A stretch of DNA of 64,000 nt from Longimicrobiales bacterium (GCA_965226375.1 CBDDCX010000008.1:64001-128000), one strand, 5' to 3'. Shown: positions 1-3,036, counted from the stretch's first letter. Numbers and translations are program-made. Notes: a model not told the origin generated them from the sequence alone.

Positions 1-7
1 ACGCATG

Positions 8-160
8 TCCGATAACGGGCTCACGCGCTCCCGGCGCGGAGTGAGCGCTAGCGAACGCAGTGCCCCGAAGGGACGGGCCCGTTGGTCTTCACGATAGTGT
101 CCCAACAGCTACCGCGCGAAGGCGCGCCGAAGGGCCCAGCGGGAGAGCGGCGTTATCGGA
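8..160 (-). repeat. attC-like imperfect inverted repeat downstream of the SDR gene
   Basis: TCCGATAACG (8-17) is the exact reverse complement of CGTTATCGGA (151-160). Further imperfect arm pairing (GCTCACGCGCT vs AGCGGGAGAGC) and internal GAA-loop mini-hairpins. AAC...GTT core arrangement. Confidence 0.5.
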
Positions 161-198
161 TGCCACGCGTCAGTCGACACCGAATCGACAGGACTCGA

Positions 199-960
199 TC
201 AGCGCATCCCGCGGTGCTGAGCACCGTCGATCGAAAGGCATTCGCCAGCAACCCATGCCGCCCGGGGGGAGATGAGGAAGACGGCGACGTGGGCGACCTC
301 TTCCGGAGTGCCAAGACGGCCCCAGGGGATCGACGCACGGACGGATTCGTAGACCTCCGGCTGCTGCTCCTTGATCGTGGACCAGATGCCGCCGGGGAAG
401 TCGATCGACCCAGGTGCGATCGCGTTCACGCGGATTCCTCGCGGAGCGTGCATCACGGCGAGTTTCTTGGCATGCGCGATCAGTGCCGCCTTGGCGGCCG
501 TATATCCATAGTCCGGGGCGGGATCTGCTTCGAGCCCCGAGGTGGACGAGACAAAGAGGATTGATCCGCCTCCGGCTTCTTCCATCCATGGCATGACGTG
601 CTCTGCGGCGTGGACGGCGGCCATCAAGTCTACCTGGAGACTCGCTTCCCAATCCGACATGTCCGGCCCAACCGCGAGCACGGACGCGTTATGCACAAGC
701 ACATCGACACTACCCAGGTCGCTCCGCGCAGCGTCGAGGAAGGCTACGAGTGCGAGGGGATCAGCGACATCGCAGGAGTGTGCGTACGCTCTGACACCCC
801 TCGACGAGATCTCCGATTCCGCAGCTCGAAGAGGCTCCTCGTTCCTGGCGCAGATCGCTACGTTCGCCTCTTCCGCGGCGAGCCCGAGGGCGATTGAGCG
901 ACCAATGCCACGACTCCCGCCGATCACAACGCAGTTCCGGTTCTGCAGTCCGAGGTCCAA
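199..960 (-). CDS. SDR family NAD(P)-dependent oxidoreductase
   Basis: GGSRGIG Rossmann motif, YTAAK catalytic motif, RVNAIAPG. TTG start at 960 with GGGAGG RBS; the ORF-track extension to 1161 looks spurious. Confidence 0.9.
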   Translation of the reverse strand: MDLGLQNRNCVVIGGSRGIGRSIALGLAAEEANVAICARNEEPLRAAESEISSRGVRAYAHSCDVADPLALVAFLDAARSDLGSVDVLVHNASVLAVGPDMSDWEASLQVDLMAAVHAAEHVMPWMEEAGGGSILFVSSTSGLEADPAPDYGYTAAKAALIAHAKKLAVMHAPRGIRVNAIAPGSIDFPGGIWSTIKEQQPEVYESVRASIPWGRLGTPEEVAHVAVFLISPRAAWVAGECLSIDGAQHRGMR

Positions 961-1022
961 GCCGATGCCTCCCTTCAAAATCGAACACAGGGCGACCGTG
1001 TCCAATATCGTGATCGAAAGTG

Positions 1023-1036
1023 ATGTCCGATAACGG
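1023..1036 (-). repeat. 14-bp direct repeat of positions 5-18 (ATGTCCGATAACGG); candidate cassette core (GTT) site upstream of the SDR
   Basis: Exact identity of 5-18 and 1023-1036. Confidence 0.6.
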
Positions 1037-1152
1037 CCCCACTCCCGACACCCATGTTCGCCAAGCAGGCACTCAGCACCCGTATCGCGACGTATGTCGC
1101 TGTATGGCCTTATGTACGACGGGGGGCACAAATCCGGGAGGGGCGCGCTCAC

Positions 1153-1158
1153 ATTATA
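1153..1158 (-). promoter_or_regulatory. Candidate sigma70 -10 box (TATAAT) facing the SDR gene
   Basis: Perfect TATAAT on the minus strand in GC-rich intergenic DNA; no clear -35. Confidence 0.3.
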
Positions 1159-1183
1159 CACACCTGAAGCGATCCGCCACTCC

Positions 1184-2179
1184 TTACCCCCTCACCTCCA
1201 CCACCTCACCACCTCTCCGGGCCGACTCGTACAGCGCCGCGATGACCCTCATGTTGAGTGCCGCCTCGTCGGCGGCGTAACGCAGGGGACGGTCGTTCAG
1301 GGCGCAGTCGGCGAAGTGCTCCACCATGAGGCGGTACTCATCGTCGCCCGCCACCGTGTGCTCGATCATTTCCCCACGGCCTCGACTCTCCTCGATGACC
1401 ACGTCGGCGGTGCCGGGAAGAAACGCCGCAGGCACGGTGAGGTGGCCGTCCGTTCCGGCCACGACACAGGATTCCCGTCGTTCCATGGTCAGTGCGCAGT
1501 CGAACTGCGCGAGCAGGCCGTCTTCGAAACGAAGCGTCCCCGCCATCTGCTCGTCGACGCCACTCGCGGACTGGTGGGCCACGGCCTGCACCTCCACCGG
1601 CTCGGCTCCGGCGATCGTCCGGCTGACGTTGACGCAGTAGCAGCCCACGTCCATCAACGAGCCTCCACCCAGATCGGGATCGAGGCGGATGTGGTCGGGG
1701 TTCTTGAGGCGGAATGTGAAGGCGCTCGTGATCACCTTGAGGTCACCCACGGCGCCGGCCCGCACCATCTCGACGACCCTCTGGATCCGGGGATGGAAAC
1801 GGTACATGAAGGCCTCCATGAGCTTCACACCGTTGGCGTCGGCGGCCGCCCGCATCTCTCCGCACTCGGCTTCGTTCAGCGCCAGCGGCTTTTCACAGAG
1901 GACGTGCTTGCCCTTTTCGGCGGCCCGAACGGTCCACTCCCGGTGCATGCTGTTCGGAAGCGGAATGTAGACGGCGTCCAGCGAGTCGTCGTCCAGCAGG
2001 GCCTCGTAGCTTCCGTAGTGCGCGGGAATATCCCACTTCTCGGCGAACTCGCGGGCTCGCTCCCCGTCGCGACTCGCCACGGCCATGAGTTCGCCGTTGT
2101 TCGAAGCTTGGATGGCCGGGTTCACGGCGGCCCGCCCGATGTTCGACGTGCTGATGACACCCCAGCGGAGCTTGGTCAC
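1184..2179 (-). CDS. Gfo/Idh/MocA family oxidoreductase
   Basis: KLRWGVISTSNIG start, HVLCEKP and MEAFMYRFHP motifs. GTG start overlaps the upstream TGA (GTGA). Confidence 0.92.
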   Translation of the reverse strand: MTKLRWGVISTSNIGRAAVNPAIQASNNGELMAVASRDGERAREFAEKWDIPAHYGSYEALLDDDSLDAVYIPLPNSMHREWTVRAAEKGKHVLCEKPLALNEAECGEMRAAADANGVKLMEAFMYRFHPRIQRVVEMVRAGAVGDLKVITSAFTFRLKNPDHIRLDPDLGGGSLMDVGCYCVNVSRTIAGAEPVEVQAVAHQSASGVDEQMAGTLRFEDGLLAQFDCALTMERRESCVVAGTDGHLTVPAAFLPGTADVVIEESRGRGEMIEHTVAGDDEYRLMVEHFADCALNDRPLRYAADEAALNMRVIAALYESARRGGEVVEVRG

Positions 2180-3036
2180 TGCGTTCTCCCTGTCGGGTCC
2201 AGAGCGTCCTGGAGCCCGTCTCCGATAAAGTTGACCGAAAGCACGATCAGCAGGATCGCCAGTCCGGGAAATATGGTGAGCCATGGCTTGGTTGCCATGG
2301 TGGCCTGGGCGTCCATGAGCATGTTGCCCCAGGTGGGGATCGGCGGCTGGACGCCGAGGCCGAGGAAGCTCAGGGACGACTCGAGGATGATCGCGTTTCC
2401 CACGGCGAGCGTGGCCCCCACCACGATCGGGCCGATGGCGTTGGGCATGATGTGCCGCATGATGATCCTCGGGTTCGCCACCCCCAGGCTGCGGGCGGCT
2501 TCCACGTACGCCATCTCCTTGATGGAGAGCACGTCGCCACGGACCACGCGCGCAGTGGCCATCCAGCTGAGCAGGCCGATGATGAGTGCCATGGACATGG
2601 CTGCCGCTTGTGTGTAGGAGCTCAAGACGATCAGCAGCGGCAACGTCGGGATCGAGTAGACTACGTCGGTCAGCCGCATCAGGAGGTTGTCCGTCCTGCC
2701 TCCGTAGAAACCCGCCAGGGCCCCCACCAGCGCCCCCATGCCGGTGCCGATAATCGCCGCCATGAGTCCGATGAGGATGGACCCCCGGCCGCCATACAGG
2801 ATTCTGGTGAAGAGGTCGCGACCCAAGTCGTCGGTACCCATCCAGTGCTCCGCCGAAGGCGCCGCACGGATGCTCCCCAAATCAATGCCGTCGAACTCGT
2901 AAGGGACCAGCAGCGGAGCGGCCACGCACGCAGCCGTGATGACACCCACCACGCCGCAGGAGGCGATCGCCAGCCTGTGCCGCTTCAGACGTCGCCACAC
3001 CAGACCCCGAGGGGTTCGCACGCCGATCTCGGTCAT
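2176..3036 (-). CDS. Peptide/nickel ABC transporter permease (DppC/OppC-like)
   Basis: HWMGTDDLGRD, YVEAARSLG (EAA loop), NFIGDGLQDALDP. Confidence 0.93.
   Translation of the reverse strand: MTEIGVRTPRGLVWRRLKRHRLAIASCGVVGVITAACVAAPLLVPYEFDGIDLGSIRAAPSAEHWMGTDDLGRDLFTRILYGGRGSILIGLMAAIIGTGMGALVGALAGFYGGRTDNLLMRLTDVVYSIPTLPLLIVLSSYTQAAAMSMALIIGLLSWMATARVVRGDVLSIKEMAYVEAARSLGVANPRIIMRHIMPNAIGPIVVGATLAVGNAIILESSLSFLGLGVQPPIPTWGNMLMDAQATMATKPWLTIFPGLAILLIVLSVNFIGDGLQDALDPTGRTQ

Follow-up and report, generated by a model that had tools for sequence, protein, structure and literature searches.

An integrase-less cassette array with its own attI-like head, likely served by a tyrosine recombinase that lacks the IntI-specific segment

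Positions 3-1183 of the window, the 64,000-nucleotide stretch of DNA analysed here (C8:64001-128000 of genome G000), are quite probably the head of an integrase-less cassette array, composed of a 1018-bp SDR cassette, a folded repeat of about 160 nt and a 104-nt attI-like site, at which single-stranded hairpins are predicted to be recombined by an insert-less recombinase encoded on contig C7 (C7:277617-278537). The array of the window is real and partly decayed, it lacks an integrase and possesses its own attI-like head, and it belongs to a lineage-specific integron-like system. It is likely to be served by a recombinase without the segment by which integron integrases are defined. The first-pass annotation of this DNA had offered either a CALIN or a lineage-specific recombination-site family; since no integrase is located in or beside the array this was right, and both parts of the description apply. 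The features at this end of the window are:

3-165, plus strand: E4, a type I attC-like structured element of about 160 nt and the predicted recombination site of the SDR cassette (covariance model R1, 188.5 bits, E 1.6e-40)
5-16, plus strand: 5' arm of the terminal stem, R-box-like, ATGTC-CGA-TAAC, pairing with 152-164
152-164, plus strand: 3' arm of the terminal stem, GTTA-TCG-GATGC, pairing with 5-16
16-1033, minus strand: predicted mobile unit (SDR cassette, 1018 bp as in the repeat spacing), reaching from the crossover in the attI-like site to that in E4, with putative boundaries
199-960, minus strand: SDR-family oxidoreductase gene, 253 aa (Pfam adh_short_C2, E 2.2e-50)
961-1022, minus strand: 5' leader of the cassette, with the ribosome-binding site AAGGGAGG at plus-strand positions 968-975
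1023-1126, plus strand: type III site, the attI-like array head, 104 nt (87.5% identity to the C7 site)
1127-1183, plus strand: spacer with two blocks (17 nt and 11 nt) that recur on C7, where they separate the type III site from the stop codon of the recombinase gene
1184-2284, minus strand: open reading frame of a Gfo/Idh/MocA-type oxidoreductase gene, where the conserved backbone starts

The array was noticed through an exact 14-mer repeat, which indeed stands letter-perfect at 5-18 and 1023-1036, and through its 10-nt core TCCGATAACG, which is perfectly inverted at 151-160. The direct repeat around the 14-mer widens to 20 nt with 90% identity and has a spacing of 1018. Within the window alone its significance is weak, as at least two matches to the motif with no more than two mismatches occur in 10 of 100 shuffled windows. 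In the 4.23-Mb genome the exact 14-mer is found at three places only (C8:64005, C8:65023 and C7:276385). An nhmmer profile built from three copies of the element finds 11 places in the genome with E below 1e-3, and the covariance model R1, built from six copies, finds 10, with 34 matches over all examined loci. A scan of 38 kb against Rfam 15 with E up to 1 placed no family on any element and returned one unrelated weak match. Besides E4, the copies in the genome are:

C8:57286-57449 and C8:60930-61090, same orientation as E4: left-hand elements of the window array (R1 and nhmmer)
C8:62583-62635, same orientation as E4: truncated element, right end only (nhmmer only)
C7:274417, C7:276382 and C7:276817, same orientation as on C8: elements on contig C7 (covariance model)
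C8:482983 and C8:2211657: lone copies (covariance model)
C8:7084 and C6:436183: two identical partial copies (covariance model)

All copies on C8 and C7 have a single orientation, and an array extending to the left of the window, as had been proposed, is borne out by the co-oriented elements at C8:57286, 60930, 62583 (truncated) and 64002. The two partial copies each lie in one copy of a duplicated segment (C8:4305-7191 and C6:436183-439054). The counterpart of this segment in the same-genus genome G001 is only about 6 kb away from the oxidoreductase gene, so that the part of C8 on the left side of the window may, over about 58 kb, represent a variable island. A weak match to the element (20 bits) is located at C6:228040-228211 in a different arrangement, 1.2 kb from a 102-aa fragment (C6:226576-226827) that matches the C-terminal part of the integrase model with 106 bits; the two are possibly a decayed platform.

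The elements end in ATGTCnnnTAAC on the 5' side and in GTTAnnnGAYGY on the 3' side, and their consensus fold is three-way branched with 48 pairs, nine of which show compensatory changes. Types I and II have their helices in common and are unlike in sequence. The minimum free energy of element 3-165 as DNA is -41.1 kcal/mol. Among 18 full copies, paired cells with G.T wobbles on the window plus strand number 72 versus 13 of the A.C type, in an alignment that was fitted to the model and may therefore lean slightly towards it. The plus strand is the better-folding one in all three local copies, as is the equivalent strand in six of the seven copies from another family. The wobble excess and the lower plus-strand energy both point to folding of the strand that faces most of the neighbouring genes from the opposite side. 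AAC and GTT are retained in 18/18 full copies, and the four outer positions of the cores do not conform to RYYY/RRRY (CGATAAC, for example), which agrees with the departure from GTTRRRY that had been pointed out at the start; the consensus cores of attC are given as RYYYAAC and GTTRRRY (PMC5027507). Folding in search of extrahelical bases, as the first-pass annotation advised, gave a conserved fold with bulges, but these are on the arm opposite to the classical place: the unpaired bases form 2-nt and 3-nt bulges on the arm that carries TAAC (a 6x3 loop in the other family), whereas PMC5027507 places those of classical attC bottom strands near L'', on the other arm. This leaves two readings, a mirrored polarity or a wrong strand assignment. 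The shortest site, a 60-nt mini-element at C7:276817-276876, has kept both ends and the first helix and is devoid of the branched interior, which is thus dispensable for keeping a site in an array.

The right-hand copy of the 14-mer had been taken for a core; the motif is present, but rather than a lone core it is the first 14 nt of the 104-nt type III site. The site is 87.5% identical over 104 nt to C7:277415-277514, which is located about 100 nt past the stop codon of the tyrosine recombinase gene, and 78% identical to one site in G001; the core (1023-1051) is common to four such sites. In the window, the position held on C7 by the recombinase gene is occupied by the Gfo/Idh/MocA gene. On C7 the type III site is followed by a ParE-antitoxin cassette, the 60-nt mini-site, a DUF6429 cassette and further sites, and its left triplet is a perfect match to the right triplet of the mini-site. 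A third, shorter attI-like core closes a one-gene unit at C8:482983-483790, again with a perfect triplet match. DNA identity to the two same-genus genomes G001 and G002 (83-85%) begins at window positions 1188-1194, and both are devoid of the whole array at this locus. The expectation that relatives would lack exactly one GTT-to-GTT unit was therefore not borne out. For the left flank of the G002 locus no match to G000 turned up at the DNA level, and an exact empty site could not be demonstrated.

Two genes of the genome come into question as the source of the recombinase:

C7:277617-278537, minus strand: tyrosine recombinase gene, IntI-related, without the IntI-specific insert
C4:70218-71264 (L011:10218-11264): canonical IntI gene, insert present (TIGR02249, 308.5 bits)

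Both model scores of the C7 recombinase stay under their cut-offs, at 218.8 bits for the XerA/integron-integrase model (220) and 205.5 bits for TIGR02249 (265), and the match is in two pieces that leave out model positions 180-234. It aligns with VchIntIA (2a3v) over residues 9-176 and 240-318 only, its best relative of solved structure is XerA (4a8e, 154 bits), and against the C4 IntI it shows gaps of 27 and 13 residues at the extra segment of IntI. A Pfam search found no added domain in its 353-aa frame, and no HARP domain there, in the G058 frame or in two homologues. The C4 gene is an In0-like lone integrase: site-like repeats are absent from the 10 kb around it, and ordinary genes follow it in tight succession. 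The Xer-like genes of the host are separate (C8:626139 and C8:1123337). The absence of an integrase on the array side, as first claimed, holds for C8:57-65 kb, in and beside which none was found; the search for an IntI-type enzyme that accompanied this claim met with success on C4 (canonical IntI) and C7 (the IntI-related gene) but not at the window array. The nearest tyrosine recombinase, at C8:54000-55470 (gene L001:8214-9377; 387 aa, PF00589, best NCBIfam score 35 bits), was considered as the array integrase and rejected as a multicopy, non-IntI gene. Together with its flanks this gene recurs at several places in G001 and G002 with 84-99% DNA identity, and L001:8000-9470 looks like a multicopy mobile element with a tyrosine recombinase; beside it are IstB and a truncated IstA of IS21.

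Homologues of the insert-less recombinase (E 1e-40 or better) are encoded in 24 of 61 relatives. In G058, G040 and G060, which belong to another family, they are 44-50% identical to the C7 protein and are followed by arrays whose sites measure 156-182 nt (mostly 161-163) and have the ends ATG[GCT]CnnnTAAC and GTTAnnnG[CA]CGT in the same relative orientation. R1 gives three weak matches on these arrays, which were found by an end-motif scan that yields many chance pairs; only sites of 156-182 nt with ATGnC/GnCGT ends were kept. An attI-like junction GTTAnnnG[AC]CAT is located 100-205 nt past the recombinase stop codon in G000, G058 and G040, the junction of G060 having different letters after the triplet, and all reading frames with Pfam matches in G058, G040 and G060 are co-directional with the recombinase. 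The succession of recombinase, attI-like junction and one-direction units of gene and site is thus seen in five genomes of two families, and in G002 a truncated homologue is located at the corresponding end of the array. No IntI over the cut-off was found in G058, G040, G060, G029 or G050 (0/5, 94-97% completeness). Of the 28 sequences in a tree, 13 are canonical IntIs that group together in a single clade (100/100) and 13 are insert-less proteins outside this clade; the insert-less group is placed relative to the two host Xer proteins with a support of 52/45, which makes its closeness to IntI or Xer ambiguous.

The two genes allow for a rival explanation in which the cassette sites are moved by the canonical C4 IntI, the array being an ordinary CALIN of a sedentary integron and the insert-less recombinase a bystander. 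The C4 enzyme is a bona fide IntI (308.5 bits against a cut-off of 265) that could act in trans, G002 with the longest array also has a canonical IntI at 335 bits, canonical IntIs over the cut-off are present in 14/61 relatives, and the cores keep AAC and GTT. However, in G058, G040 and G060, about 95% complete, the insert-less recombinase is followed by arrays whose end motifs are the same, without any IntI over the cut-off, the attI-like site of G000 is directly behind the insert-less gene, G015 has elements and an insert-less fragment only, and the placement of the bulges is unlike that of classical attC. Mobilisation by the C4 enzyme is accordingly judged unlikely, and service by the insert-less recombinase is preferred.

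A search for related loci with a single recombinase query gave 119 pattern matches, none of which was confirmed, and a search with an alignment gave 79 loci of 33-52% identity from many phyla, 14 of which were flagged by a 12-mer screen (leads only). A Woesearchaeota MAG contig (L107, 236-4872) encodes a 35%-identical relative of the recombinase that is followed, over 3.6 kb, by 12-mers recurring at intervals of ~700 nt; this archaeal contig thus shows an array-like rhythm. The complete genome G011 carries on C1 seven equal-scoring homologues of 44% identity (464158-464976, for example), which suggests that they ride on a repeated mobile element.

By covariance and profile models the window array consists of three full sites, one truncated site and one attI-like site. 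It is degraded by the truncation, by IS21, an IS3-like insertion and another IS, and by one opposite-strand gene, which encodes a FAD monooxygenase on the plus strand, unlike the minus-strand genes for the SDR and the amidohydrolase. Matches to R1 were found in five of the 61 related genomes (G000, G001, G002, G015 and, weakly, G026). The most regular arrangement is that of the same-genus genome G002, with nine elements in 9.2 kb at a start-to-start spacing of 587-1790 nt, and a second cluster of three elements 23 kb further on. The eight intervals of G002 comprise four with a clear minus-strand reading frame, two with plus-strand toxin-antitoxin modules and two that are ambiguous. The four clear reading frames start 39-90 nt from one site and end 9-172 nt from the next (9-89 nt in three of them). 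There is thus one site per cassette and the cassettes are mostly co-oriented; the lack of a one-gene-one-site rhythm, which the first-pass annotation had named as a reason to abandon the array, is contradicted by G002. The cargo of the arrays includes PIN with an antitoxin, Gp49 with HTH, ParE with antitoxins, a nucleotidyltransferase, a CN hydrolase and several ORFans, and their content varies among genomes within one genus.

Several insertions are apparent to the left of the window. A multicopy segment of 1.1 kb between E1 and E2 (L001:11542-12716, C8:57542-58716) has copies of 88% identity in G001 and G002 and is flanked by two identical 31-nt direct repeats. The IS3-like insertion with an HTH_21 reading frame is located at L001:13025-14378 (C8:59025-60378), and a contig from one sequencing run (X4) joins L001:13024 straight to 14379, so that a population variant without this insertion exists. 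In public sequencing runs, represented by assembled Logan contigs only, no recombination event was seen, three joints being IS-related or short-sided; L001:15345-18016 has almost no cover in runs X4, X11 and X12. The joints 11329>14976 (X12, side 23) and 14970>19023 (X2, side 31) were considered as cassette losses and rejected as too short-sided.

The arrays carry a signature that is expected if each unit is cut and rejoined at a fixed point of the core, which is complementarity across the gene unit. The variable triplet between ATGTC and TAAC pairs across the gene, with the triplet that follows GTTA in the previous site, far more frequently than within its own site: complementarity is perfect in 12 of 22 cases across the gene (mean 2.32 of 3) versus 6 of 29 within the site (mean 1.41), and none of 20000 within-array shuffles reaches the across-gene pairing that was observed. 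With the commonest (consensus) triplet pair left out the figures are 8/18 and 3/26, respectively. The sample was drawn from eight arrays of six genomes, and three of its entries were adjusted by eye. A pair of 23 nt with 91% complementarity flanks the amidohydrolase gene, which lies immediately to the left of the window. Complementarity therefore runs across the cassette.

This bears on a second explanation, namely that the element is a MITE- or REP-like dispersed intergenic repeat with terminal inverted repeats, unrelated to gene capture. Copies are dispersed over three contigs, some of them alone, the terminal inverted repeats are present, IS elements are abundant around the array, and some subsets of copies share 25-45 nt of flank beyond their ends. 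However, the triplets pair across genes and fit those of the adjacent element better than the partner in their own element, the internal helices covary, and within the array there is one orientation and one copy per gene unit. Moreover, two families have kept the link to one recombinase clade, and no target-site duplication was seen in the listed element flanks. In the case of the solo copy that was inspected, an attI-like core with a perfectly matching triplet closes the unit at a distance of one gene; bounding a single gene in this way, C8:482983 counters the suggestion in the first-pass annotation that the motif could turn out to be a dispersed REP/MITE end. A repeat of this kind would be recognised by gene-independent insertion, target-site duplications and ends matching inside the element, which is not the pattern here, and the explanation is highly improbable.

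That the element acts as an RNA, for example as an antisense or 3'-end structure that controls or stabilises neighbouring transcripts, and is repeated for that reason, is very doubtful: its structure is strand-specific (72 wobble cells versus 13) and multi-branched with small conserved hairpins, and it sits just past stop codons, but with respect to most neighbouring genes the favoured strand is the antisense one, the elements match no Rfam family, there is no terminator-like site in window 1-1400, and the triplet pairing across genes and the link to the recombinase would be left unexplained.

On the preferred reading of a cassette array, the SDR unit adjoins the attI-like head and is therefore the first cassette, as had been proposed. 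Its gene starts with TTG after AAGGGAGG. The protein is 75-90% identical to many metagenome proteins (Gemmatimonadales, Longimicrobiales and allies), which, along with the names carried by homologues of the recombinase, points to a Gemmatimonadota genome. It is present in 5/61 related genomes with 79-100% identity, neither of the same-genus genomes having it. The array reading explains how an SDR gene that is 79-90% conserved in distant relatives can be missing from the two nearest genomes. In G029 the SDR gene is also framed by hairpin sites, which are of an unrelated type of about 120 nt with three copies in 3.7 kb. Homology between the G000 and G029 cassettes starts exactly at GTTAT on the coding strand and the leader is conserved onwards. 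Neither of the flanking site bodies is conserved, so that the arguments as to which site travels with the gene are indirect; tblastx among the arrays with the elements masked found one small paralogous family only, which left the travelling site body unsettled. A promoter and terminator scan of window 1-1400 reported none. A perfect TATAAT is present on the minus strand at 1153-1158, in the attI-like spacer and about 190 nt upstream of the SDR start.

The crossover is predicted at TAA/C, between A15 and C16 of the plus strand, on the combined grounds of the homology break at GTTAT, the gene orientation and the place of the attI-like head; this yields a cassette of 16-1033. The triplet pairing across cassettes points to this position as well, and the analogy drawn on is the AA/C of canonical attC bottom strands.

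Like sedentary chromosomal integrons in which intI and the cassettes are co-oriented, the system has a recombinase gene, an insertion site past its 3' end and tandem cassettes of gene and site; the sites are imperfect palindromes with AAC and GTT cores, the better-folding strand is opposite to the genes, the cassette ends are complementary, and the cargo is rich in toxin-antitoxin pairs and ORFans with a content that varies between close relatives. In the archaeal integrons described in a preprint attI is located immediately downstream of intI, and IntI is defined there by its extra domain (10.1101/2022.02.06.479319). Unlike sedentary integrons, the array-linked recombinase is without the IntI insert and outside the canonical IntI clade, the sites are uniform (155-165 nt) and multi-branched, the paired end extends over 12-13 bp with a conserved outer ATGTC/GACGT, the CGATAAC core misfits RYYYAAC, and the unpaired bases are on the TAAC arm; an IntI with the additional domain is not found beside the window array. 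A CALIN is a cluster of attC sites lacking an integron integrase, in the wording of Cury et al. (2016, PMC4889954). The window array resembles a CALIN in its several co-oriented sites with genes between them, in the absence of a nearby integrase and in the presence of one elsewhere in the genome. It differs in that CALINs are defined by the attC model of IntegronFinder, whereas the sites here were called by their own covariance model, and in that the attI-like head (1023-1183) is kept, which is not expected in CALINs. Systems of the Xer/dif type, including the pdif modules of Acinetobacter plasmids, have 28-bp duplex sites in alternating orientation. The C7 recombinase is Xer-like in length and domains, and discrete gene modules are likewise bounded by sites, but the sites here are hairpins of about 160 nt in one orientation and the host has two separate Xer-like genes.

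Recombination at the array sites is predicted from their sequence, and a mechanism may be proposed. The strand opposite to the genes (the window plus strand) would fold, and the recombinase would bind the terminal stem of 12-13 bp and the next helix. A cut within TAA/C on the 5' arm would be followed by strand exchange with the attI-like core or with another site, and the junction could be resolved by replication, as in classical integrons. The cassettes would be read from upstream transcription, which here would be that of the co-directional oxidoreductase gene.

The insert of IntI is held to be essential for integron chemistry. Integron integrases are both defined and detected by software through the extra domain, which contacts the flipped-out bases of attC. 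Arrays that are served by a domain-less relative would escape detection or be classed as orphan CALINs. Beside the known integrons and CALINs, the insert-less recombinase and the architecture of the sites look like a new variant, and full-text literature searches found no paper on arrays served by an integrase without the IntI domain. Gemmatimonadota are among the phyla for which integrons are listed (PMC8618304). The chances are about even that this lineage, probably Gemmatimonadota, harbours a second kind of integron, in which the recombinase either never had or has lost the insert, the sites are branched hairpins of ~160 nt with a terminal stem of 12-13 bp and with unpaired bases on the opposite arm compared with attC, and short attI-like heads, each carrying a single cassette or a few, are seeded at several loci of the chromosome remote from the enzyme, the window holding one such orphan head. 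If the C7 enzyme does move cassettes, gene capture at hairpin sites would be independent of the IntI domain, the choice of strand could be encoded differently, and a living intermediate would be at hand for testing whether integrons arose from Xer-like enzymes.
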